Part shown: positions 7,742 to 61,479 of the stretch, piece after piece
Layout of the letters: each line of letters starts with the position of its first letter
Numbering within the stretch: the stretch's first letter is position 1
Virus record (IMG/VR): IMGVR_UViG_2974549561_000001
Span: 1 to 64,000 of that record
Direction: 5' to 3' (one strand)
DNA from: a virus
Taxonomy: Duplodnaviria; Heunggongvirae; Uroviricota; Caudoviricetes
DNA: 64,000 nt
Translations under genes and position numbers: made by a program
Notes under the pieces: generated by a model
What the model saw: only the letters and a program-made list of their open reading frames with translations
What the model was told of the DNA's origin: nothing
Databases searched by the model: none

Positions 7742-9448
7742 TTGAGTAACTTACGCGAATACCAGAATCGTATTGCAGATATCGCAAAACGCTCTAAAGC
7801 TGTGCTTGGCTGGGCAAGCACTGCGCAGTTCGGTACTGATAACCAATTCATTAAAGATGATGCCGCGCGTGCCGCATCTATCCTTGAAGCTGCACGTAAA
7901 GACCCGGTTTTTGCGGGTATCTCTGATAATGCCACCGCTCAAATCGCTACAGCGTGGGCAAGTGCACTGGCTGACTACGCCGCAGCACATAAATCTATGC
8001 CGCGTCCGGAAATTCTGGCCTCCTGCCACCAGACGCTGGAAAACTGCCTGATTGAGTCCACCCGCAATAGCATGGATGCCACTAATAAAGCGATGCTGGA
8101 ATCCGTCGCAGCAGAGATGATGAGCGTTTCTGACGGTGTTATGCGTCTGCCTTTATTCCTCGCGATGATCCTGCCTGTTCAGTTGGGGGCAGCTACCGCT
8201 GATGCGTGTACCTTCATTCCGGTTACGCGTGACCAGTCCGACATCTATGAAGTCTTTAACGTGGCAGGTTCCTCTTTTGGTTCTTATGCTGCTGGTGATG
8301 TTCTGGACATGCAATCCGTCGGTGTGTACAGCCAGTTACGTCGCCGCTATGTGCTGGTGGCAAGCTCCGATGGCACCAGCAAAACCGCAACCTTCAAGAT
8401 GGAAGACTTCGAAGGCCAGAATGTACCAATCCGAAAAGGTCGCACTAACATCTACGTTAACCGTATTAAGTCTGTTGTTGATAACGGTTCCGGCAGCCTA
8501 CTTCACTCGTTTACTAATGCTGCTGGTGAGCAAATCACTGTTACCTGCTCTCTGAACTACAACATTGGTCAGATTGCCCTGTCGTTCTCCAAAGCGCCGG
8601 ATAAAGGCACTGAGATCGCAATTGAGACGGAAATCAATATTGAAGCCGCTCCTGAGCTGATCCCGCTGATCAACCACGAAATGAAGAAATACACCCTGTT
8701 CCCAAGTCAGTTCGTTATCGCGGCTGAGCACACGGTACAGGCGGCGTATGAAGCACAGCGTGAATTTGGTCTGGACCTGGGGTCCCTACAGTTCCGCACC
8801 CTGAAGGAATACCTGTCTCATGAACAGGATATGCTGCGTCTTCGCATCATGATCTGGCGCACTCTTGCGACCGACACCTTTGACATCGCTCTGCCGGTTA
8901 ACCAGTCCTTTGATGTATGGGCAACCATCATTCGTGGCAAATTCCAGACTGTATATCGCGACATTATTGAGCGCGTTAAATCTTCTGGTGCGATGGGGAT
9001 GTTTGCTGGTGCTGATGCAGCATCTTTCTTCAAACAGTTGCCGAAGGATTTCTTCCAGCCAGCCGAAGACTATATCCAGACTCCGTATGTTCACTACATC
9101 GGTACCCTGTTCGGTAACGTGAAAGTGTACGAAGTACCTGCTGGTATTTGTAAGAACTTAACGACAGAGAACATTCAGTTCAGCTCGATGGATGTGCTGT
9201 GCTACGTCCGTGATGAAAATCCGGGTAAAGCAGGCTTCGTGACTGGTGATGCTGTCCCGGCCATCCCGTTCCAGCATCCGACCACTCCGGCGCTGGTCAA
9301 TCGTACCACGCTGTGGGGTTCGGCTATCAATGATATGCACCCACGCAACGGCGCTGATTACTTCACTCGTGTAACGCTGACAATGGCCAAAAAAGGCGGG
9401 CTTAACTTCATTAGCGGCGACACGATTGATGCCGGTGACTCTGAGTAA
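7742..9448 (+). CDS. major head protein precursor (gp23-like), probable TTG start
   Basis: about 570 aa, first gene after parS as in P1; AAGGAAG SD six nt before TTG 7742; function assigned by synteny and size only. Confidence 0.5.
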   Translation: MSNLREYQNRIADIAKRSKAVLGWASTAQFGTDNQFIKDDAARAASILEAARKDPVFAGISDNATAQIATAWASALADYAAAHKSMPRPEILASCHQTLENCLIESTRNSMDATNKAMLESVAAEMMSVSDGVMRLPLFLAMILPVQLGAATADACTFIPVTRDQSDIYEVFNVAGSSFGSYAAGDVLDMQSVGVYSQLRRRYVLVASSDGTSKTATFKMEDFEGQNVPIRKGRTNIYVNRIKSVVDNGSGSLLHSFTNAAGEQITVTCSLNYNIGQIALSFSKAPDKGTEIAIETEINIEAAPELIPLINHEMKKYTLFPSQFVIAAEHTVQAAYEAQREFGLDLGSLQFRTLKEYLSHEQDMLRLRIMIWRTLATDTFDIALPVNQSFDVWATIIRGKFQTVYRDIIERVKSSGAMGMFAGADAASFFKQLPKDFFQPAEDYIQTPYVHYIGTLFGNVKVYEVPAGICKNLTTENIQFSSMDVLCYVRDENPGKAGFVTGDAVPAIPFQHPTTPALVNRTTLWGSAINDMHPRNGADYFTRVTLTMAKKGGLNFISGDTIDAGDSE

Positions 9449-9508
9449 TCAGGGGAAGTTCTCCGTTTAACATAGCGCCCCCGTGCGGGGCGCATAACAG
9501 GGAAAGTT

Positions 9509-11098
9509 ATGTCTCAATATTCAATTCAACAGTCATTAGGTAATGCATCCGGCGTCGCGGTTAGCCCGATCAATGCCGATGCGACGTTATCTACCGGTGT
9601 TGCATTAAATAGCAGCTTGTGGGCTGGTATTGGCGTATTTGCGCGTGGCAAGCCGTTTACTGTTCTTGCGGTTACTGAGTCCAATTACGAAGATGTTCTC
9701 GGCGAACCGCTGAAGCCGTCTTCCGGCTCACAGTTCGAACCAATTCGCCATGTATACGAAGCTATTCAGCAAACATCTGGTTATGTTGTTCGCGCTGTTC
9801 CGGATGATGCGAAGTTCCCGATTATTATGTTCGATGAATCAGGCGAACCGGCTTACAGTGCGTTGCCATACGGTTCTGAAATTGAACTTGATAGTGGCGA
9901 AGCCTTTGCTATCTACGTTGATGATGGTGATCCGTGTATTTCACCTACCCGTGAGTTAACCATCGAAACAGCAACAGCGGACAGCGCGGGTAATGAACGC
10001 TTCCTCTTAAAACTGACCCAGACGACTTCGCTCGGCGTGGTAACGACCCTGGAGACACACACTGTGTCTTTGGCGGAAGAAGCGAAAGATGACATGGGCC
10101 GCTTGTGTTATCTGCCTACGGCTCTGGAAGCCCGTTCTAAATATCTGCGCGCGGTTGTTAATGAAGAGCTGATTTCGACAGCGAAAGTAACAAACAAAAA
10201 ATCGTTGGCGTTCACTGGCGGTACCAACGGCGATCAGTCGAAAATCTCAACCGCTGCGTACCTGCGTGCGGTGAAAGTGCTGAACAATGCGCCGTACATG
10301 TACACCGCTGTTCTCGGCCTGGGGTGCTATGACAATGCGGCGATCACTGCGTTAGGTAATATCTGTTCTGATCGCCTGATTGATGGCTTCTTTGATGTCA
10401 AACCGACATTGACGTACACGGAAGCGATCTCTGCTGTTGAAGATACCGGTTTACTTGGTACCGATTATGTAAGCTGTTCTGTCTATCACTACCCGTTCTC
10501 CTGCAAAGACAAATGGACCCAATCCCGTGTGGTCTTCGGTCTGTCTGGCGCGGCGTATGCGGCGAAAGCTCGTGGCGTCAAGAAAAACTCTGATGTCGGC
10601 GGTTGGCATTACTCACCGGCTGGTGAAGAACGTGCCGTCATTGCTCGTGCGTCAATTCAACCGCTGTATCCGGAAGATACCCCGGACGAAGAAGCAATGG
10701 TCAAGGGCCGTCTCAATAAAGTATCTGTTGGCACCTCTGGCCAGATGATCATCGACGATGCTTTAACTTGCTGCACGCAGGATAACTATCTGCACTTCCA
10801 GCACGTCCCATCCCTGATGAATGCAATCAGTCGTTTCTTTGTCCAGTTAGCCCGACAGATGAAGCATAGCCCGGACGGTATTACTGCGGCTGGCCTGACT
10901 AAAGGGATGACCAAACTTTTAGATCGCTTTGTCGCCTCCGGCGCTCTGGTGGCTCCTCGTGATCCTGATGCTGACGGTACAGAACCGTATGTGCTGAAAG
11001 TTACGCAGGCGGAATTCGATAAATGGGAAGTAGTCTGGGCCTGCTGCCCGACTGGCGTAGCCCGTCGTATCCAGGGCGTACCGCTGCTTATTAAGTAA
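9509..11098 (+). CDS. contractile tail sheath protein (gp22-like)
   Basis: 529 aa, strong SD, follows head gene; size and position fit P1 sheath. Confidence 0.5.
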   Translation: MSQYSIQQSLGNASGVAVSPINADATLSTGVALNSSLWAGIGVFARGKPFTVLAVTESNYEDVLGEPLKPSSGSQFEPIRHVYEAIQQTSGYVVRAVPDDAKFPIIMFDESGEPAYSALPYGSEIELDSGEAFAIYVDDGDPCISPTRELTIETATADSAGNERFLLKLTQTTSLGVVTTLETHTVSLAEEAKDDMGRLCYLPTALEARSKYLRAVVNEELISTAKVTNKKSLAFTGGTNGDQSKISTAAYLRAVKVLNNAPYMYTAVLGLGCYDNAAITALGNICSDRLIDGFFDVKPTLTYTEAISAVEDTGLLGTDYVSCSVYHYPFSCKDKWTQSRVVFGLSGAAYAAKARGVKKNSDVGGWHYSPAGEERAVIARASIQPLYPEDTPDEEAMVKGRLNKVSVGTSGQMIIDDALTCCTQDNYLHFQHVPSLMNAISRFFVQLARQMKHSPDGITAAGLTKGMTKLLDRFVASGALVAPRDPDADGTEPYVLKVTQAEFDKWEVVWACCPTGVARRIQGVPLLIK

Positions 11099-48864: not shown

Positions 48865-51800
48865 ATGAACAAGCTATCTATGGGTGTGTTTCGCTGTTCA
48901 AGTGTCAGCGAAATATTGAAATACATTAGGACAATAACATCTCACCGAGCGCCGATTAAATACGGCGTGGAAAAGGTGGAAGGCAAAAGCTATGACCGAC
49001 TGCGCCGGGAGGCGAATCAGAAGGCGATAGATTTGCTTAATTCGCTGGTGGACGGCGCGACACTGACAGATGAACAGCGCCAGATCCTGGCCGGGTACAC
49101 TGGTGAAGGCGGCATTGGCGGGTCCGTCTCCGAATATTACACACCAAAGCCTATCGCTGAAGGTGTCTGGGAGATCATGAAGCTCTACGGCGCGGACGTA
49201 GGTAACACTCTGGAACCATCGGCGGGAACCGGCGTTTTTAATGAGACAAAACCGGTTGGTACGGTGATGACCGCGACTGAGATCAGCAGTGTTTCCGGTC
49301 GTATAAACCAGTTGTTACACCCGGAAGACAGCGTACAGATTTCCCCGTTCGAACAGCTGGCTGTAAGCACGCCTAACGATTCATTCGACCATGTTGTGGG
49401 TAACGTTCCGTTCGGCGGTCGTGATAACACACGCAACATCGATAAGCCTTACGCAGAAGAAACGGACATGGGTTCTTACTTCATGCTCCGCATGCTGGAC
49501 AAGATAAAGCCTGGCGGATTCATGTGTGTGATTGTGCCGCCGTCCATTGTTTCAGGTTCAAACATGAAGCGGTTACGCCTGCGCCTATCACGGAAAGCTG
49601 AATTTCTTGGCGCTCACCGCTTGCCTACCGGTACTTTTGACGCAAACGGGACCAGTACAGTCGTTGATGTGGTGCTGATGCGCAAACATCCGGCAGAGAT
49701 GGCTGAGAAAATCCCCTTGGTGGATGAAAGCACTCTTGAATCGGCAAATGTGCTTTGGCCAACGTTTATTTATGGCAAGTGGTTTGAAAAGGATGGCCGC
49801 CGGTTTGTTCATGGTACCCAGGAAAAGGGCTTCCAGGGGCGTATTGAGGTTCGTGCCGACGGGCAGATTGATAACCAGGCTCTTAAAGCGAAGCTGATTC
49901 ATCGTTTCGAAAGTCGTATCGACTGGTCTTTGCTCAATATGGCTGAACCGTCACCGACCGCAGACGTTGTTGATGAAGGGGAAATGCGCCTGATTAATGG
50001 CGTATGGCAAAAATATGCTGGTGGTCGCTGGATTGAATCTGATGCAGGGAAGGAGCTGAAGATTGATGTTGCCAGTTATGGCGCGGACAGCTGGGAGGCT
50101 CTTCAGCGTAACCTGACTACAACAGAAGGCCGTCTCGGTATGACATTTACCCAGATGGCAAATGTCCGCGATAAATACACCACATCAATCAGCGACGATA
50201 TGGTGCAGCTGGTGGACTGGATTAACAGCCAGCCTGAAAAATACCGTGAACGCTTGTATCGCGGGGCGATGATTGGCCGGATGTTAATTGAATATCAGGA
50301 CATGAAGGCCGCCGGGCATAGTGCTGAACAAATCGAACAGCAGCGCCTTTCTCTGGTATCCCGTTTGCAGGCAGAGATTGACCGTTTTGGTAACCCCGGT
50401 CGCGGTCCGATAGCGAAATTATCGGGGAGCGGTGCGCGCGCCTGGTTTGCTTTCCGTGGTGCAATTAAGCTGGATGGCACTATTTCTGACGAGCTGACAG
50501 GAAAACTGGTTACGCATGATTCCAGCGCCAGTTATGACTCCACCAGCTATCAGGACACCCTGCGTTATCTCTACAGTGATCTCACTCGCGATCCAATCCA
50601 GCTCGATGATTTCCGCCTTGCGTTTACCGGCGAACTGCCAGCCAGTGATGACGAGTTGCTTAATTTATTGGCCAGCACCCCTGGCATTGCGGTTTCACCG
50701 TATGGCGGGATTGTTCCGTTCGCCCGCGCCACCAGCGGCGACATTAACGAGATAGTGGCACCAAAACAGGAATTCCTTGCCACACTCCCCGACGGTCCAG
50801 TAAAGAACAACGTCCTTAATCAGCTGGCAGCGATCGAAGAGAAGCGCATCAAGACGCCAGCAGAGAATATCCGCTTTAAGCTCAATAGCCGTTGGTTCGA
50901 CCGTTCCGTCATTCTGGAATTTTTGCAGGAAAACGGCTATCCGGATCTTCGCTATGTGCAGTCAGTGCAGCTGGAAGGCGACGAAATGGTTTCTGACACC
51001 TATCACGGTGGTGATGGTCTGTTCGTCGGGCACCGATACGGTGTCGTCCAGCGCAAGGATAAAGAAACAGGCGAGATCCGCTACGAGTGGGACCGTAAAT
51101 CAGGTGAAAACGCGACCGGGTTCCCGGCACAGCTGGAAAAGTATCTCAATGGTGCGCGTATCGGTGGCAAAGATAGCGCGACGGCGAACGGCTACCGCGA
51201 GCAGATGGCACTGCTTGAGGACCAGTTCAATAAGTGGATCAAGACGCACGATCGCTACGATGAGCTGGTTGCCAAATACAACGATGTGTTCAATAGCAAT
51301 ATCCCGTATGAACACTCTGGCGATCCGCTTGGGTTGAAGGGATTAAGCGGTAAGCGCCAGCCATTTGATTACCAGAATAGCGAGGTGCGCCGACTGTCCG
51401 AAGATGGGCGCGGCATCCTGGGCTTCGGCACCGGGCTGGGTAAAACCACGACCGCGCTGGCGCTTGAGGCGTTCAACTATGAGAACGGTCGCTCCACCCG
51501 TACTGCGTATGTAGTGCCTAAATCAGTGCTGGAAAACTGGTATTACGAAGCAAAAGAATTCCTGAGTGAAGAGGCATTCAGTAACTACCTGTTCGTCGGT
51601 CTTGATGTGCTGATGGATGGCGATCAGATTCGCCAGGTGCAGGTGCTCGATGAGAACGGTAAACCTGTTCTTGGTACTGATGGCACTCCAGTTATGCGCG
51701 ATGCTCTTAAGCTGGCAGATGAAGCCACTATCACGGCGCGGATGAACGCGATCCCGCACTCAAATTACCGTGCAGTCGTGTTTACCAAAGAACAATACGC

Positions 51801-54800
51801 CCGCATTCCGCTACGTGATGACACCGTAGATGAGCATGCACAGGATATGCTTTATGACTTCGTTGCCGCCGGACGCGTAGCCAGCGCAATGGACTCCGAC
51901 TCCCACCGCAAAGAGGCCGCGCGTCGCCGGGTATTGTCGGAGTATTCAGATACCGGCACCGAAAAAGCAGAGAAGTATCCGTACTTTGAGGATATGGGCT
52001 TCGATAGTGTGATCGCTGACGAAGGTCACAACTACCGCAATAGCTATAAAAATGGTCGCGAAGCGTCACAACTGGCCTATCTGCCCACCAGCGCGGTGGC
52101 GCAATCGGCGCGAGATATGGCAATTAAAAACGCGTACCTGATGAAAAAGAATGGTGGGCGCGGGCCGGTTCTCCTGACTGCAACGCCAGTCGTTAACACC
52201 CCGATCGATGCATACAACATGCTTTCTCATGTTCTGCCGAAGGAATACTGGCAGAACATGGGGATCTACGGTCCTGATGACTTCGTTAAATTCTTCGGCA
52301 AGACCAGGCTGGAAACGGTACAGAAAATTAGCGGTGAAGTTGAAGAAAAAATGGCGCTGGTGGGCTTTGAAAACCTTGATGCGCTGCGCGGTATATTCCA
52401 TCGCTGGGTAACGCTTAAAACGGCGGAAGACGTTAAGGATACCGTGGAGATCCCGGAGCTGGACGAACACCAGCAGGATGCACCACTTACTGAAGAACAA
52501 CTGGCGGCGTATGAAGAATTGCGTCAGCAGGCGGAAGCGGCGGCCAAAGCCAACAATGGCGTAACGACCTCGGTCAATGAAGACGGCGTGATTGAGCACG
52601 AGAAAGCCCGTCCGATCTTCTCAATAATCAGGGATATGGACCGCGTATGTACTGACATGGACCTGTACTATCGCCGGATCACCTATCGTTTCCTGCCGGA
52701 GTACGCCGATGCGGTGCAGCAGCTGGCGGACAGTTTGCCTAAACAAGCCACCAGCGAAGACGACGACAGTGATGATTCAATCACGCAGCAATCGCAATAC
52801 TCCCTGATAGATAAGGGCGAGTTTATTCAGTTGCAGGTTCCGGAAGCGTTCGAGCAGGAAGTGAATAAGCGCCTGGCCAGGTTTGGCATTGACGAACAGA
52901 CCGTAACTCACCCCGTTACGCCCAAATACGCGAAGCTGATTGCCACGCTGAAGGAGTTTTTCCCGGAAGGTAAGCAAATCATCTTCACCGATGAAAAAAC
53001 GCAGCACCAGAAGCTCAAGCGCATTATCTGCAATGCTCTTAACCTTGAACCTTCAAAGGTGGGGATACTGAATGCTCAGACGGTTGCCGAGGCAGGTAAA
53101 ACCGGTAAGAAACTGAAAGCGGTTAAACCGCCGAAAGAGTTACCGGATGAACCAACAGATGCACAGATAGCGAAATACAACGAGCAAATGGCTCTGTATG
53201 ACGCCTATATCGCGCAGCAAAATGAAATGTCGCTGGGCGGGCTGGAAAAGATTGCTGCCGACTTCCAGGAGGGACGGACTCCGATCATCATCTGCAACAA
53301 AAAGGCAGAGGTGGGTATCAACCTGCATCGAGGAACGACTGACATCCATCATCTGACGTAGCCATGGACACCAGCCAGTATCGCACAGCGTAACGGTCGC
53401 GGTGCCCGAGTTGGCTCCAACCGTGCAAGCGTTCGCGTTCACTACTACTGCGGCAAGGGTTCTTTCGATGAATACCGACTGAAGACGCTGAAGCGTAAAG
53501 CAGGCTGGATCTCCGATATCCTCCGTTCAGATAAGTCAGAAATGGAGAACGCCGACGCCAACGATATGATCGAAATGCAGATGTATACCGCTAAGGATGA
53601 TGGCGAACGTCTGGCAATGATGCAGGTTCAAATGGATAAGGCGAAAGCCGCGCAACGCGCTCGCCAGAAAGAACAGGCTACTATCGACCTTCAGAACTAC
53701 ATCAAGGCGCAGCACGCAGCTGGCGAGGATGTGGAGGTACTTACCGCTGAATTAGAGCGAAGCAAAGCGGAACTTGAAAAGACCACCGCCGAGGTAGCTA
53801 AATTCAAACAGGCGGTAATGGCCAAAGCAGCTGATAACGCAGACTGGAAAGCCCGCTGGGGTAGCGTCCATCACACAGACCGTATGTTGTTAGCACAGTA
53901 TCGCGCGTCGTTGAAAAGCGCCATTCAACGCAAGGCTAATATCTCTCAAGCCATCTCCCGCTATGAGAAATTATTGAACCGTACTCAGAAGGCCGCGACG
54001 GATATCAAACGCCTGCGCCCGCTGGTGGAGGATGCAATAAATAAAGGCATTCTGGATGTAGATCCTGACCTGGTTAACCATGCGAGTGAGTTCCTTGTTA
54101 TCGGCGATCGCTCATGGCGTGTAGGCCAATACTACGATTGTGCCGGTGATATCGTTCGCATTAAGTCGCTGGACTTCGACAGCCAGCGCGCAGACGTGGA
54201 GATTATCTTTACCTTCAAAGGTACCAAATCGGGTAACTGGGATGTGAAGACGCTGGATAAACAGGTTGATGTAACTCCCGATGAAGATGCTGTTATGCAG
54301 AAAATCAGTGGCGGCGTCTCCATCGCCGGGATTAACGACATCATTTCCTGTGACGATTTCTACCGTTTCCAGCAGCGCGGCATGATCAAAATCACTGACT
54401 CATACGGCGTTCAGACTACAGAGTCAGGCTATAGCATTGATTTTGTTGGTACCTATACGGACCCACTGAAGCATGCGGTTTACCCGGATCGCCGTGACGG
54501 CGCGCTGAAGTCGTCAATTGCAAAATGGGTGCTTGGTATGATGTCGGAAGGGAATAACCGCCAGATCCGTTCGGCAGAAACATTCCTGGTTGAATTGTTT
54601 GGCTCCAATTATGGCGATGTAATCGCGTCATACGGAGATACGCTATCCCCTGAAGCAATTCAGGAGAAAATAGCGGATGCGATCGCCAGAATGCCGGAAA
54701 AAACAAGCCAGGGGGCTACTCGTAACGGGGATTCTGAACTTGAAGTCACCAATGCCATTTTCGGTACCAATGAGTTCCGGGCGTCAGATTATGAGATCAC

Positions 54801-55632
54801 CACAGCACAGTTTGGCACCATTGGCATTTACAGCAATAAAGCCGAGATCAAGCAGGCAATGGACTCAGCAAGCGCGCGCATCGCAGCAGAACGGGAAGCC
54901 AATCTGAATCATGCAGTCGCCGCGCTGACTCAATCGTGGGTAACAGCAATCAGGGAGGCCGCCACCACAGGGAAAATCACACCTGCAATAGCGGATGTCG
55001 TAAACGACGGCTCTAAATTTATGGATGCCTATCAAATGGATGCGGTGAAGTTGCCATCAGCCTATGGTCAACTCAGCTATCGCATGACCTACAACCTGGT
55101 ATCAATGTTTTCCGACCTTGCCATCCTTGGGCTGGTGGATCTTAACGAGGTTACGCCGGAATTGCTCAGCATGCGCAAGAATCATGTGGAGATATTGCAG
55201 AGAATTAACACGGTTCTTGCTGGGCGCACCGATGAAGAGAAACAGGCCGACGCTGATCGGATAAACCTAGCCCTTGGCAACATCACGGAGGAAGAGATTG
55301 CCGCCAGAAACGAGAAACAAGAAGAGTTATCATCAATACAGGGTGATGCCACCAGCATAGCTCAGTCTCTTGGTCTGAATTATCGCGTATCCACCGCCGA
55401 CCTGAAGATGATGTACGCACCAAAATTCGCCGCTGGCGAGGTATTTGGGCTTCAGGAAGCCTCAGGCATGAAAGGCGTTCTTTTCCGTGCGAAAGACGCA
55501 ATCAAGGCGAAATTCGGCGCTCGCTGGCTGCCAGCGAAGGCGAAGAACAGCGATTTCCCGGGTAACTGGTGGATTATCGAGACAAAACACAACGTGGCGG
55601 ACGTTCTGGCCGTCATCCAACAATACGCATAA
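48865..55632 (+). pseudogene. darB: darB (methyltransferase-helicase antirestriction protein) with one in-frame TAG at 53359-53361
   Basis: ORFs 48865..53361 and 53542..55632 are in the same frame; total 2255 codons equals P1 DarB length; N-terminal MTase motif VVGNVPFGG, helicase motif HHLT*PWTPASIAQRNGRGAR spans the stop. Confidence 0.8.
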
Positions 55633-55665: not shown

Positions 55666-56106
55666 ATGGCCACACTATCTGATACAATAAAACCGAATAA
55701 AACATATCTTGAGGCGGTACTCCGTACAGCGTTGTTAGGAAAGACAGAAGACGAATACGTTGATTTCTTCCTGTCAGGGCTACGCGGGCGATTACTGAAA
55801 AATCCCCGCCTGTACCGCAGCTATGGTCCATACTGGCCGGAAATTAAAAAATTATTACTGGAGCGCGGTTATGGTAATTTCGGTCGTCTCGTTGACCGTG
55901 ACGTTCGCAAAATTTACCGTTATGACCGCCCGGCGCTAACACTCATAGCCGCGACGCTCTACAGCCAGGAGCGTTTTGATAATGGTCAGATATACTCAGC
56001 CTGGCATTTACTGCCAGTGCCTGAAGAAGTTGACGACCAGGACTATGAGTTTGAGTCTTACGATTTGGAAGTTGAAGCCTTGGCACAGGCTGGAGAGAAA
56101 ACTTGA
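55666..56106 (+). CDS. ulx: Ulx-like hypothetical protein
   Basis: 146 aa after darB; synteny only. Confidence 0.45.
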   Translation: MATLSDTIKPNKTYLEAVLRTALLGKTEDEYVDFFLSGLRGRLLKNPRLYRSYGPYWPEIKKLLLERGYGNFGRLVDRDVRKIYRYDRPALTLIAATLYSQERFDNGQIYSAWHLLPVPEEVDDQDYEFESYDLEVEALAQAGEKT

Positions 56107-56351
56107 AAAAGCGATACTACACAGTAAAGCATGGGACGCTACGAGCATTACAAGAGTTTGCTGATAAGCATAACGTTGAGGTGCGCAGGGAAGGGGGAAG
56201 TAAAGCTCTGCGCATGTACCGTCCGGACGGGAAATGGCGTACGGTCGTCGATTTCAAAACTAACAGCGTTCCCCAGGGCGTCCGCGACCGGGCATTCGAA
56301 GAATGGGAGCAGATCATCATAGATAACGCATTGCTCCTGAATGCTGATTAA
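56103..56351 (+). CDS. lxc: Lxc/Bof-like C1 co-repressor modulator, TTG start
   Basis: 82 codons with GGAGAG SD; size, TTG start and position match P1 lxc as I recall. Confidence 0.5.
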   Translation: MKKRYYTVKHGTLRALQEFADKHNVEVRREGGSKALRMYRPDGKWRTVVDFKTNSVPQGVRDRAFEEWEQIIIDNALLLNAD

Positions 56352-56388
56352 ATCTTTGGCTATGCCTGGCTAAGCCAGGCATAGGAAT

Positions 56389-57519
56389 TTACACAGTATC
56401 AATGTGTCTGCTAAGGAATCTCCCGAACTGATTTGTTGACCCAAAATAGTTAGGATAAGCCTTTTTAAGAGATTTAATGTTGTTAGTGGCAAGCAGCACC
56501 GCAATTAATACTTCAGGATCCGCATCATCCTTATTAAGTTCCTGGAGGGCTTGTTCCGATTCTTTTTTCCTAAAAGGTTTCACAGAAACAAGAAACTTTC
56601 CAGTATCCTTGCCATTTTTTGTTATGGCGTTTCTCATCCTCACCAAAAAGAATCCATTATGGTTTTTGGGCAGGCTTTTCTTTAGGTTTGCATCTGATGT
56701 CAGCTTCATTGCAAATGTATATGTACTTAATTTTGAGCGAACAGATAAAGCCTCCTCCAATGTTTTAAGCTCTGTTTGATAATTTTTGATGGTTTCATCA
56801 TCAAGAATACAGGCACCTTCATCATGAGCAACTAGGCATCCAGAAAGATAAAAAAATCTTCTCCACTCAGGGTGACCTTCATTAGAAGTTTTCAGCTTAA
56901 TATTTTCAAGTGTATCTATTATCTCCAGACTTGTTGCCCAAGCATGTTGGAGTTCTGTTCTTAGTTGTACTTCGATTTTAGTTTTACTCCACGGATTGTT
57001 ACCGTTTTCTTCATCAAAACAACTATATGCAAGGTGAATGCCACTATATCCGCTTGGCTTTGGAGTTAAATAGTCATATTCCTTTAAGATTTTATGCTTG
57101 GAGCGACTTTTAACTAGTCGGTCTTTTAGTTTCTTTAGTTGTTCGATGTTTCTAACTATAGCTCTACATCCGCCAATATCCTGCATTCTAGTAAGGGCTA
57201 TTGCATTATTTGTTGCGCCGCCGTCAAGACTTGGACGCTCCAGTTTATCAATTATTGTGCTAAGTCTTTTTAGGCGTCTTGCAACAATAATCTTATTCTC
57301 TTTATCAACTTTTTTTGCAGCCCTATCAAGATGATTTTTCATTAGCATCAATGGATATAAATGAAGCTCGCGGAAATTTTGAATCATTTTAATTGCTTCT
57401 TCTCGCTCTGCGCCCTCACAACCATGTCTAATTTTTCTGGCTGCTTTTTCTATTTGAGATTTCGAATATTTAAGCTCGCATTTTTGGCTTTGATATACTT
57501 CACTGCCCATTACTAACAT
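56389..57519 (-). CDS. CapRel-like fused toxin-antitoxin (RelA/SpoT toxSAS domain plus C-terminal regulatory domain)
   Basis: DIGGCRAIV, YSGIHLAY and EVQLRTELQHAWA motifs of the RelA/SpoT synthetase fold in the N-terminal two-thirds; about 130-aa C-terminal extension; start codon ambiguous (TTG 57528, ATG 57519/57510). Confidence 0.6.
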   Translation of the reverse strand: MLVMGSEVYQSQKCELKYSKSQIEKAARKIRHGCEGAEREEAIKMIQNFRELHLYPLMLMKNHLDRAAKKVDKENKIIVARRLKRLSTIIDKLERPSLDGGATNNAIALTRMQDIGGCRAIVRNIEQLKKLKDRLVKSRSKHKILKEYDYLTPKPSGYSGIHLAYSCFDEENGNNPWSKTKIEVQLRTELQHAWATSLEIIDTLENIKLKTSNEGHPEWRRFFYLSGCLVAHDEGACILDDETIKNYQTELKTLEEALSVRSKLSTYTFAMKLTSDANLKKSLPKNHNGFFLVRMRNAITKNGKDTGKFLVSVKPFRKKESEQALQELNKDDADPEVLIAVLLATNNIKSLKKAYPNYFGSTNQFGRFLSRHIDTV

Positions 57520-57622
57520 CCAGTTCAAATGATTAATGTGTTGTTACATATAATAACAAATCAAGCTAGAAATCAATGGGTATGAAAATGAAACATACCC
57601 ATAATGTTACCTAACGTAACTA

Positions 57623-58264
57623 TTATAAATAGTTCTGTTTACCTGTTAATTCTCCTTGCGGCACTTGTTTTTGCGTTAGTGTTTGAGTTCCGCGAATTAT
57701 GTTAATCAGGGGACTTAGTAATGATGGTTCCTGATGGGCCTCAACTTCTCCAGCCATTGCCCTGATGTAGTCGGCGCTGGCAACGTTGTTGTATTCCGTC
57801 GCAAAGCAACATAGTAACGTCAGAACATGTTCTGTCGTTATTTCGCTCCAGTTGATGTTGAAAAATTCATCGCCTTTTTTATCGTGTTCGGAATCGAAGA
57901 TGCTTTGGTGAAGGATGTATTTGCCGGATTCCTTGCGCGGTAACTTGATCGCTTTCTGGCGTTCCAATTCCTTGTAAATCTGCATTGCTTCAATCAGTAC
58001 CGGTCTGCCGTTCATGAAGGGATCACGCAACCTTACACGCTGGCCAACTCGACCGGTAATAAAGCTGTTTTCCTCTTCCACCAGCACGATAAAACCCTTT
58101 TCCTCTTTTTCTCGCAATTCGCGCAGCAGCTGGAGTTCCATATCGCGGCGGCGTTCAGGGTAGCTGGTCCGCTCAGCCATTATCAGCTCATTGTTGATCC
58201 ATGCAGCAGTCATTGACGCCGGTTTGCCGACGCTCATTGAAACAACGCATATTTTCTTATCCAT
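57623..58264 (-). CDS. ref: Ref-like protein (recombination enhancement function position)
   Basis: 213 aa from ATG 58264 (185 aa from a later ATG); charged N-terminus, His-rich HQSIFDSEHD...NINWSEITTEH segment; operator-like site upstream. Confidence 0.4.
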   Translation of the reverse strand: MDKKICVVSMSVGKPASMTAAWINNELIMAERTSYPERRRDMELQLLRELREKEEKGFIVLVEEENSFITGRVGQRVRLRDPFMNGRPVLIEAMQIYKELERQKAIKLPRKESGKYILHQSIFDSEHDKKGDEFFNINWSEITTEHVLTLLCCFATEYNNVASADYIRAMAGEVEAHQEPSLLSPLINIIRGTQTLTQKQVPQGELTGKQNYL

Positions 58265-58445
58265 AGCGCCCCTACAAAAAAGAAAAGCCACCAGCGGCGG
58301 CTTAGCAATACAACTGAAGGTAGCGCCCGGTACTCAGACTGTGCCGTCCATGGAATATTTGAAAAGGGATCCATCCGTACCGGGCGTGTGATGATTCTGA
58401 CTCAAGTCACTTGTCAGTTGTCAATCATTTAAGATTAAAAATAAT

Positions 58446-58462
58446 ATATTTATTAGTGCATG
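58446..58462. promoter_or_regulatory. weak C1 operator-like site (Op2 position)
   Basis: ATATTTATTAGTGCATG, 13/17 to reverse complement of consensus. Confidence 0.35.
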
Positions 58463-58479
58463 ATGTTTGCCATTTCATA

Positions 58480-58517
58480 GGGGAGCCCGCAGAATTCGGA
58501 AAAAATCGTACGCTAAG
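58480..58517. repeat. Tn1721-type 38-bp terminal inverted repeat
   Basis: GGGGAGCCCGCAGAATTCGGAAAAAATCGTACGCTAAG read directly; tnpA stop lies inside it. Confidence 0.85.
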
Positions 58518-61479
58518 GTTTTCCGGGCATCCGTAAGGGCCGAAACTTCCCGTCTTCCAGTCTGCGGCTCTGCCGCCAGACGTAATCGCCGGTTAGGTTG
58601 ATGTGCTCCCAGCCCAGCGGCGACAGGAATTGCAGCAGCTCGCCGTCCACCGGCTTGCCGGCCTCGACCAACCCCTGGGTGGCGCGTTCCAGGTACACCG
58701 TGTTCCACAGCACGATAGCCGCCGTCACCAGGTTGAGGCCGCTGGCCCGGTAGCGCTGCTGCTCGAAGCTCCGATCCCTGATTTCCCCAAGGCGGTTGAA
58801 GAACACCGCCCTGGCCAGCGAGTTGCGCGCCTCACCTTTGTTCAGGCCGGCATGCACGCGGCGGCGCAGTTCAACACTTTGCAGCCAGTCCAGGATGAAC
58901 AGCGTGCGCTCGATCCGGCCCAGCTCGCGCAGGGCCACGGCCAGTCCGTTCTGGCGCGGGTAGCTGCCGAGCTTGCGCAGCATCAGCGAGGCGGTGACGG
59001 TGCCCTGCTTGATCGAGCTGGCCAGGCGCAGGATGTCGTCCCAGTGGGCACGCACGTGCTTGATGTTCAGGGTGCCGCCGATCAGCGGGCGCAACGTCGG
59101 GTAGGCTTGCACGCCCTGCGGCACGTACAGCTTGGTTTCGCCGAGGTCGCGGATGCGCGGCGCGAAGCGGAAGCCTAGCAGGTGCATCAGGGCAAAGACG
59201 TGATCGGTGAAGCCGGCCGTGTCGGTGTAGTGCTCCTCGATCCGCAGGTCGGACTCGTGGTACAGCAGGCCGTCGAGCACATAGGTGGAATCGCGGACGC
59301 CGACATTCACCACGCGGGTGCTGAACGGCGCGTACTGGTCGGAGATATGGGTATAGAACAGCCGTCCCGGCTCGCTACCGTACTTCGGGTTGACGTGCCC
59401 GGTGCTCTCGCCCCGGCCACCCGCGCGGAAGCGCTGGCCATCGGAGGATGAGGTCGTGCCGTCGCCCCAGTGGGCGGCAAAGGCGTGGCGATACTGGTGG
59501 TTGACCAGCTCGGCCAAGGCCGCCGAATAGGTTTCGTCGCGGATGTGCCAGGCTTGCAGCCAGGACAGCTTGGCGTAGGTCAGGCCGGGGCTCGACTCGG
59601 CCATCTTGGTCAGCCCGAGGTTGATCGCATCACCGAGGATTGCGGACAGCAGCAACGTCCTGTCTTTGGCCTCGGCCCCGTCCTTCAAGTGGGTGAAGTG
59701 GCGGCTGAAGCCCGTCCAGTCGTCCACGTCCATCAGCAGTTCGGTGATCTTGATGCGCGGCAGTAACTGGCTGGTTTGGTCGATCAGCGCCTGCGCCCGA
59801 TCCGGCACCGCCGCATCCAGCGGGGTGATTTTCAGCCCTGACTCGGTGAGGATGGCATCGGGCAGCTCGTTGTCCTTGGCCAGGCGGGTGACGGTGGCCA
59901 ACTGCTCGTCCAGCAGCTGCAAACGCTCTTCCAGGTACTGGTCGCTGTTCGGGTTGATCGCCAGGGGCAGGGCCTGCTCGCGCTTGAGTGCGGCGAACTT
60001 CTCGGCCGGCAGCAGGTAGTCGTCGAAGTCGCGGAACTGCCGCGAGCCCTTGACCCAGATGTCGCCGGAGCGCAGGGCGTTCTTCAGCTCGGACAGGGCG
60101 CAGATTTCGTAGAATTTCCGGTCGAGGCCTTCCGGGGTGATCACCAGCGGCTTCCAGCGCGGCTTGATGAAGGCCGTGGGTGCATCGGCCGGCACCTTGC
60201 GCAGGTTGTCGGCGTTCATCTCACGCAGGGTCTGCACGGCTGCCAGCACGCCTTGCGCGGCCGGCGCGGCGCGCAGTTCCAGCACCTCCAGCAAGGCCGG
60301 CGTGTAACGGCGCAGGGTGGCGAAGTTCTCGCCGACCAGGTGCAGGTGGTCGAAGCCTTCCGGCCGGGCCAGCAGCTCGGCCTCGCTGACGCTCTCGGTG
60401 AACTCGTCCCAGGGAATCACCGCCTCGATGGCGGCATAGGGGTCGCTGCCGCTTTCCTTCGCTTCCAGCAGCGCCTGGCCGATCCTGGAGTACAGGCGCA
60501 CCTTGTCGTTGATCGCCTTGCCCTGCTTCTGGAACTGCTGCTGATGCTTGTGCTTCGCGCCGCTGAACAGCTTGACCAGGATGCGGTCATGCAGATCGAC
60601 CAGCTCATCGATCACGGTCGCGGTGCTCTCCAGCACCACGGCGGCCAGGGTCGCGTAGCGGCGCTGCGGCTCGAACTTACCGAGGTCTTTGGGCGTCATC
60701 TGCCCACCCTCGCGGGCCAGCTTGAGCAGGCGGTTCTGGTGGATGTGCCGGCCCAGGCCTTCGGGCAAGTCCACCAACTGAAATGTCTTCAGCCGCTCGA
60801 TGTGTTCCAGCATGTGCCGAGAGTTGGGTTTCAGCGGTGCCTGGCGCAGCCAGGTCAACCAGGTGATGCTGCTGCCGGCCTTGAGCTTCAACAGCTCGTC
60901 CAGCTTGGCCCGATGCGAGTCCGTGAGTGGTTCGACCAGGGCGCGGTAGACCCGCCGATTGGCTCGCGCAATGGCTTCCGAGCAGGCCCGGTCAATCACG
61001 CTCAGCGCCGGCAGGATGCGTCGTTTCTGCCGTAGGCTCTCCAGGGCCTGACCGGCCAGCAGCAAGCCTTTGTCGGTCTGCTGGGCCAGCTCGGTTAGCT
61101 CGCGCACCAGGGCGCGGAAGTCGGACAGGCCGAACGGGGCCAGTTGCAGGTAGGTGCGCAGTTCCTGGGCATGCTCGCGACGGGTCACGTCGCGCTCGCC
61201 GTACTTTGCCCAGCTCGCCGGCTCGGCCTGGACTTGCTTCGCCACCCACAGGATGACCGGCTCGGGCAGCTCGCTGTCGGTTCCCAGCGCGTAACCGGGG
61301 TAGCGCAGCAGGCAGAGCTGCACGGCGAAGCCGAGGCGGTTGGCGTCGCCGCGTCGCTGGCGGATCAGCGACAGGTCGGAGTCGTTGAAGGTGTAGTAGC
61401 GGATCAGGTCATCCTGGCTTTCCGGCAGCGCAAGCAGGGTGTCCCGCTCCGTGGCCGAGAGGATCAAGCGACGCGGCAT
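58513..61479 (-). CDS. tnpA: Tn3-family transposase TnpA
   Basis: 988 aa; closely resembles Tn21/Tn1721 TnpA from memory. Confidence 0.95.

Follow-up and report, generated by a model that had tools for sequence, protein, structure and literature searches.

[quoted passage not shown]

We analysed a stretch of viral DNA of 64,000 nucleotides (hereafter the window) and found that, judged by its sequence, the gene at 56389..57510 on the minus strand is CapRel-SJ46 itself, the type member of the CapRel family, and not a relative of it. We regard it as nearly certain that the window carries capRel-SJ46 at its native position, either on the P1-like phage-plasmid SJ46 itself or on a sibling indistinguishable from it, and that the whole explanation, including the mechanism proposed below, holds. 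CapRel-SJ46 is among the best-characterised bacterial immune sensors, with two Nature papers, two crystal structures and two triggers. Compared with the published system (Zhang et al., Nature 2022, PMC9712102; Nature 2024, PMC11578894), the 373-residue sequence, the phage-plasmid background and the upstream region are all the same. None of this is new, as earlier publications describe the gene and its variable slot as well as the structure and the triggers of the protein. The recovery and correct placement of the gene from raw sequence alone serve as a positive control and bring no new biology. Meanwhile, a modest added value lies in the exact stop-to-stop boundaries of the cassette and in a sampled catalogue of the occupants of the slot.

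The six-frame ORF list contains a single minus-strand ORF of 379 codons at 56389..57528 with a TTG start, as the initial annotation had reported, and its start needs correcting. The likely start of capRel is the ATG at 57510, 6 codons (18 nt) inside the listed ORF, which gives a product of 373 aa followed by the stop codon TAA at 56389-56391. The six additional upstream codons are all that the listed ORF adds, and at the protein level there is no difference from CapRel-SJ46. The ATG start is common to the protein deposited in the PDB and to the RefSeq CDS of an identical plasmid (WP_001749390.1, a 1,122-nt CDS with the same coordinates). Furthermore, the residue numbers used in the literature fit only when they are counted from this ATG, and all ten published functional residues (A77, R79, R116, Y155, V338, L339, A341, A351, Y352, and Y355) are present. 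In the PDB sequence search, the product was identical to 7ZTB_A over 373 of 373 residues (E 1.6e-250) and to 9ERV_A over 372 of 372 residues (E about 1e-250). The former structure is unbound CapRel-SJ46, and the latter is the complex of CapRel-SJ46 with Gp54 of phage Bas11 (PMC11578894). In addition, a PADLOC candidate family, PDC-S33, was matched along the whole of the product (E 5.1e-87, profile positions 4-342 of 349). The initial annotation had called the gene a CapRel-like fused toxSAS defence gene and had suggested a comparison with RelA/SpoT and CapRel structures and an alignment with CapRel-SJ46; the complete identity to both deposited chains supports that description and makes it an understatement.

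The N-terminal toxSYNTH toxin region covers aa 1-272 (56695..57510, minus strand), as delimited by the Pfam match, the functional residues and published work (PMC9712102). It includes the Pfam RelA_SpoT core (PF04607) at aa 79-193 (56932-57276, minus strand), which was matched at E 3e-13 and 50 bits, above the gathering cut-off of 27. The RelA/SpoT synthetase motifs that had been read in the raw sequence are all there (GGCRAIV, YSGIH, and EVQLRTELQHAW). The ATP-coordinating residues R79 and R116 are located in this region as well, and together with the G-loop residue Y155, whose codon is at 57046-57048, they stand at the published positions. The C-terminal antitoxin/sensor region covers aa 273-373 (56392..56694, minus strand) and consists of anchor helices, a pseudo-zinc-finger domain and the YXXY motif. 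The autoinhibitory YXXY motif is Y352-P-N-Y355, at 56446-56457. The presence of this YPNY motif, of V338, L339, A341, A351, and A77, and of a C-terminus identical to that of 7ZTB identifies the region as the fused antitoxin of CapRel. Its length had been put at about 130 aa and is about 100 aa instead when counted from the published 1-272 toxin fragment. In the published complex, residues 270-279 of helix alpha-9 contact Gp54 (PMC11578894).

CapRel-SJ46 is a single-gene system, and capRel is the sole gene of its 1,271-bp cassette, where the other ORFs are antisense overlaps. The unfused toxSAS pairs PhRel/ATphRel (of mycobacteriophage Phrann) and FaRel2/aTfaRel2 resemble it in the RelA/SpoT-type toxin, in tRNA pyrophosphorylation and in being prophage-borne defence. 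However, these pairs consist of two genes, whereas toxin and antitoxin are fused in CapRel-SJ46 and the antitoxin doubles as the sensor.

Each step of the mechanism has been published for the identical protein. The fragment 1-272 is toxic, the C-terminal fragment neutralises this toxicity in trans, and the full-length wild-type protein is non-toxic without a phage trigger (PMC9712102). When CapRel-SJ46 was expressed from its native promoter, plaquing of T2, T4, T6, RB69, and SECphi27 was reduced 10- to 1,000-fold, and 100-200 bp of native upstream DNA sufficed for protective expression in a promoter-less vector (PMC9712102). The setting of these assays was pBR322 or an insertion in the E. coli chromosome. 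The substitution Y155A removes the defence (PMC9712102). Thus, the native-promoter plaque assays and the active-site mutant that the initial annotation had suggested are already in the literature. Protection was seen only at low multiplicity of infection (PMC9712102), which indicates abortive infection. The C-terminal YXXY motif occludes the ATP site between R79 and R116 (PMC9712102). Furthermore, the major capsid protein Gp57 of SECphi27 is necessary and sufficient for activation, and it boosts tRNA pyrophosphorylation in vitro (PMC9712102). Gp57 binds the pseudo-zinc-finger domain (PMC9712102), in support of the earlier proposal that the C-terminal sensor sets the trigger specificity. A second and unrelated trigger is Bas11 Gp54, which has an overlapping binding surface and for which a crystal structure of the complex exists (PMC11578894).

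We propose that the copy in the window would act in its native context as published for the identical protein. One polypeptide would combine an N-terminal toxin of the RelA/SpoT type (toxSYNTH) with a C-terminal pseudo-zinc-finger antitoxin, and the latter would autoinhibit the former. On infection, newly made major capsid protein (Gp57 of SECphi27 or the capsid proteins of Bas phages) would bind the C-terminal domain and keep the enzyme open, and the small protein Gp54 of Bas11 would open CapRel likewise. The freed toxin would then pyrophosphorylate tRNA, translation would halt and the infection would be aborted. The promoter of the gene would be located in the roughly 140 bp before it, and read-through from the C1-repressed late mat promoter might also contribute. 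In this way capRel could help the lysogen by excluding other phages. In addition, lxc-mat cassettes are probably exchanged through homologous recombination in the conserved flanks.

Three other readings of the gene were weighed against this one. It could be an ordinary small alarmone synthetase of the RelQ/RelP/YjbM type, which would make (p)ppGpp for the host or the phage and would have no role as a toxin or in defence. Residues 72-200 are indeed weakly similar to RelQ, RelP, and YjbM structures (E 2e-7 to 2e-4), and RefSeq and GenBank give the protein names such as 'GTP pyrophosphokinase'. However, against the YjbM/RelQ equivalog of NCBIfam (NF053588) the capRel product reached 39.4 bits and thus missed the cut-off of 320, and the identical protein pyrophosphorylates tRNA and is toxic once its autoinhibition is relieved (PMC9712102). 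Furthermore, housekeeping small alarmone synthetases are without the fused antitoxin domain of CapRel. We rejected the housekeeping enzyme on the missed NCBIfam cut-off and the published tRNA-directed biochemistry, and we give this reading almost no chance.

The fused antitoxin bears also on a role mainly in plasmid addiction, in which capRel would have replaced the stabilising role of res-mod by post-segregational killing and phage defence would be secondary. CapRel is a toxin-antitoxin system, and it sits in place of res-mod, which has itself been called a plasmid addiction system of P1 (PMC6906374). However, toxin and antitoxin are on one chain and the wild type is harmless without a phage trigger; because the two parts form a single polypeptide, differential decay after plasmid loss cannot release the toxin. 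The slot is also empty in some otherwise intact P1-like plasmids, and we consider a main role in addiction highly improbable. Finally, capRel might be silent cargo in its native context, unexpressed or masked, so that the plasmid-based phenotype would not apply to SJ46 lysogens. Our literature search turned up no report on the expression of capRel in its native context, the promoter is a prediction, and other functions of SJ46 have decayed, for example by an amber codon in darB. Against this, 21 plasmid records from three genera share the intact ORF with 100% conservation, the exact CapRel-SJ46 protein is found on 1,000 or more public contigs, and the native upstream 100-200 bp is enough for protection. 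Silent cargo therefore seems very unlikely to us.

The genomic background of the gene is that of SJ46. Over its last 25 kb (39001-64000), the window shares 100% identity with three plasmids, namely two Salmonella SJTUF plasmids (103,445 bp each) and an S. Indiana plasmid (103,441 bp); the published genome of SJ46 is 103,445 bp long (PMC5241659). In SJ46, a Tn1721-blaCTX-M-27 region of 8,644 bp with TATGA repeats on either side is inserted between mat and ref (PMC5241659), and the same TATGA-flanked junction beside mat is present in the window. Taken together, the identical sibling plasmids and the published descriptions strongly suggest that the window is indistinguishable from phage SJ46.

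The junction between the Tn1721-like (TnAs1-family) transposon and the phage DNA was located at 58453..58480 (minus strand) by comparison with P1 2600-2720. The last position of the transposon's terminal inverted repeat is 58480; next come the target duplication TATGA (58475-58479) and then P1-homologous sequence. What the window holds of ref is a 27-nt remnant of its 3' end at 58453-58479 (the last 8 codons and the stop); the rest of ref is separated from it by the 8.6-kb transposon and falls outside the window, near what would be position 67,000 in window coordinates. The TATGA target is 22 nt before the ref stop codon, and the transposon thus replaces the last ref codons and is not placed cleanly between ref and mat. 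The transposase gene tnpA of the TnAs1/Tn1721 family (58513-61479) and then tnpR follow, according to the ORF list and the annotation of the identical plasmid. Past the end of the window, the transposon carries blaCTX-M-27 and IS903B, as seen in the identical plasmid NZ_CP031191.1.

The gene order in the window is darB, ulx, lxc, capRel (minus), mat (minus), and transposase, which is inverted relative to the order ref, mat, res, mod, lxc, ulx, and darB of P1 (the reference used has an IS5 insertion in mod). The anti-restriction methylase/helicase gene darB (48865-55632, plus strand) is followed by ulx (55666-56106, from the ORF list and the annotation of the identical plasmid). The left conserved flank is lxc, which encodes the C1 repressor modulator (56103..56351, plus strand) and has 96-98% nucleotide identity to lxc of P1; related records name its product Lxc or a modulator protein. 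The right conserved flank is mat, which encodes the maturation control protein (57623..58264, minus strand; the ORF extends to 58291). Its product is 93% identical to aa 31-250 of P1 Mat, and it is annotated as a 642-nt CDS in the identical plasmid. The initial annotation had placed capRel between lxc and ref; the lxc side of this placement is right, and the neighbour on the other side (57623-58291) is mat. We rejected ref as this neighbour on its 93% identity to Mat and its lack of similarity to Ref. The mat gene is immediately upstream of capRel and in the same direction, and capRel is opposite in direction to res-mod of P1. At capRel the GC content dips sharply to 34-41%, whereas it is about 50% towards darB and 65% in the transposon.

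The exchangeable cassette takes up everything between the stop codon of lxc and that of mat (56352..57622). Its 1,271 bp have a GC content of 36.7%, compared with 51.7% in the darB-lxc flank. To map the boundaries, 56103-58400 was compared by BLAST with P1 and a further seven P1-like plasmids. Homology to those plasmids is lost at 56347-56373; it returns at 57611-57638 or, with two of the occupants, at 57741 and 57755. In the comparison with P1, the unmatched stretch begins at the lxc stop and ends at the mat stop. This is the interval that res-mod occupies in P1, and neither res nor mod sequence of the EcoP1I type III restriction-modification system is present in the slot of the window. This agrees with the earlier reading that the gene stands in the place of res-mod. 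The capRel cassette and EcoP1I res-mod share the mat-lxc interval and the low GC content. However, EcoP1I acts by DNA restriction and comprises two genes in the opposite orientation over about 5-6 kb, whereas the capRel cassette is 1.27 kb and would act by tRNA modification with abortive infection.

The proposal of a swappable slot also stood up, and this variability has been published before. The res-mod interval, P1 3,469-9,749, was named RD-1 and called a hot-spot of variation in P1-like plasmids, and a 'putative phosphokinase' of pTZ20_1P was reported within it (Venturini et al. 2019, PMC6906374). In addition, CapRel is named in a 2025 preprint as one of the most frequent defence systems in P1-like phage-plasmids. 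To estimate the occupancy, we took 60 evenly spaced records out of 813 matching ones, and the slot was readable in 43, in which the occupants were tallied from the annotated features. There were 10 records with SIR2, 7 with DUF2971, 7 with an EAL domain, 6 with a YaaC-family protein, 5 with RelA/SpoT (CapRel), 3 with type III restriction-modification, 3 with PIN, and 2 with an empty slot. Some of the EAL records include a PAS-MCP gene or IS elements and are possibly transposon remnants. When PADLOC was run on representative loci, SIR2 was assigned to PDC-S25/ThsA-like, PIN to PDC-S34, and DUF2971 to PDC-S31, and the YaaC protein, its 169-aa partner and the EAL protein had no PADLOC match.

The YaaC occupant consists of two genes (9012-10561 of locus L005, from NZ_CP041960.1), one coding for a YaaC-family protein of 346 aa (Pfam E 6e-46) and the other, overlapping, for a protein of 169 aa. 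The smaller protein has a weak, sub-threshold Pfam match to nucleoside 2-deoxyribosyltransferase (E 2e-4), and neither protein was matched in NCBIfam. A literature search on YaaC as an anti-phage protein found nothing specific. By its position, the pair is a candidate new defence system. The occupants include uncharacterised ones that would lend themselves to a screen for defence activity. It is conceivable, though in our view less likely than not, that the lxc-mat interval is a one-cassette defence hot-spot like those of P2 and P4, and that the uncharacterised occupants (YaaC with its 169-aa partner, DUF2971, and PIN) would be new anti-phage systems.

With the DUF2971 and EAL occupants (loci L007 and L008), the 3'-terminal 120-130 nt or so of mat (57623-57755 in the window) diverge as well, which indicates that these two cassettes bring their own Mat C-terminus. 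Between SJ46 and P1, the last 40 or so residues are the most variable part of Mat, and this is consistent with cassette-borne Mat C-termini. The empty slot (8958-9006 of locus L003, from NZ_CP135665.1) is about 49 bp long and has its own GC-rich hairpin, GCCCGG-TCTGTCG-CCGGGC, unlike that of capRel. Each state of the slot thus seems to supply its own terminator between convergent genes.

In the capRel cassette, the hairpin consists of two perfectly matching 11-bp arms around a 3-nt loop, CTATGCCTGGC-TTA-GCCAGGCATAG, and was read from the sequence at 56360..56384. It sits between the convergent lxc and capRel stop codons and probably serves as a terminator in both directions. It has no T-run and for this reason was not called in the terminator scan. 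On the other side of the gene, a sigma-70-like promoter was predicted at 57622..57649 (minus strand; TTAACA-16 nt-TATAAT, 11/12), which is the best match upstream of capRel. It overlaps the mat stop codon, and its -35 element is within the conserved mat coding sequence. The prediction agrees with the published construct driven by 100-200 bp of native upstream DNA. However, the divergent capRel allele described below does not conserve the -10 hexamer, and the promoter thus stays a prediction. Another candidate element in the 5' leader of capRel, an inverted repeat of 9 bp (57602-57594 / 57584-57576), was dropped, since it is absent from the same allele. An Rfam search of both strands of 56250-58520 gave no RNA element at E<=1. 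Upstream of mat, the C1 operator Omat (58445-58462) and Pmat/LPmat (58394-58424) were placed by homology to P1.

The slot holds two CapRel alleles among P1-like plasmids. The 2.8-kb region was matched by 707 plasmid records, 68 of them with a coverage of at least 80%. Among these 68, as read from the matches listed, 21 have the SJ46 allele (identity of 99.8% or higher) and the remaining 47 have an allele of about 88% nucleotide identity. By this count of listed matches (47 versus 21 records), the second allele outnumbers the SJ46 allele in PLSDB by about two to one. It is exemplified by WP_000526244.1 of NZ_CP134391.1 (8990-10117 of locus L009), a protein of 375 aa in the same lxc-mat slot. 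This protein is 74% identical to CapRel-SJ46, matches PDC-S33 (E 8e-86) and keeps the YPNY motif. The substitutions run along its whole length, including the sensor region at 270-330 (alpha-9 and the pseudo-zinc-finger domain), and the range of triggers of the second allele is for this reason probably different from that of CapRel-SJ46. Among the known homologues, CapRel-Ebc, CapRel-Kp, and CapRel-EcHT have the same architecture as CapRel-SJ46, but their phage specificities are unlike it, namely T7 (Ebc), SECphi18 (Kp), and Bas8 (EcHT).

Two further differences from P1 were seen in the neighbouring genes. At the 5' end of mat (58264-58300, minus strand), a G-run reads GGGG in the window and GGGGG in P1. 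With one G fewer, the start of mat annotated in P1 (MDPFSNIPWT...) is out of frame in SJ46, and mat can therefore begin only at the internal ATG at 58264, which gives 213 aa. The 642-nt mat is annotated in other P1-like plasmids too, and this suggests that the 250-aa annotation of mat in P1 may be too long.

In darB, codon 1499 (53359-53361) is changed from TTG to the amber codon TAG, and the gene for 2,255 aa is split into ORFs of 1,498 and 696 aa. This codon is TTG in P1 and in four other P1-like plasmids. The TAG is common to the identical S. Indiana plasmid, whose gene table has no darB CDS. The Dar system of the SJ46 lineage may have lost some of its anti-restriction function.
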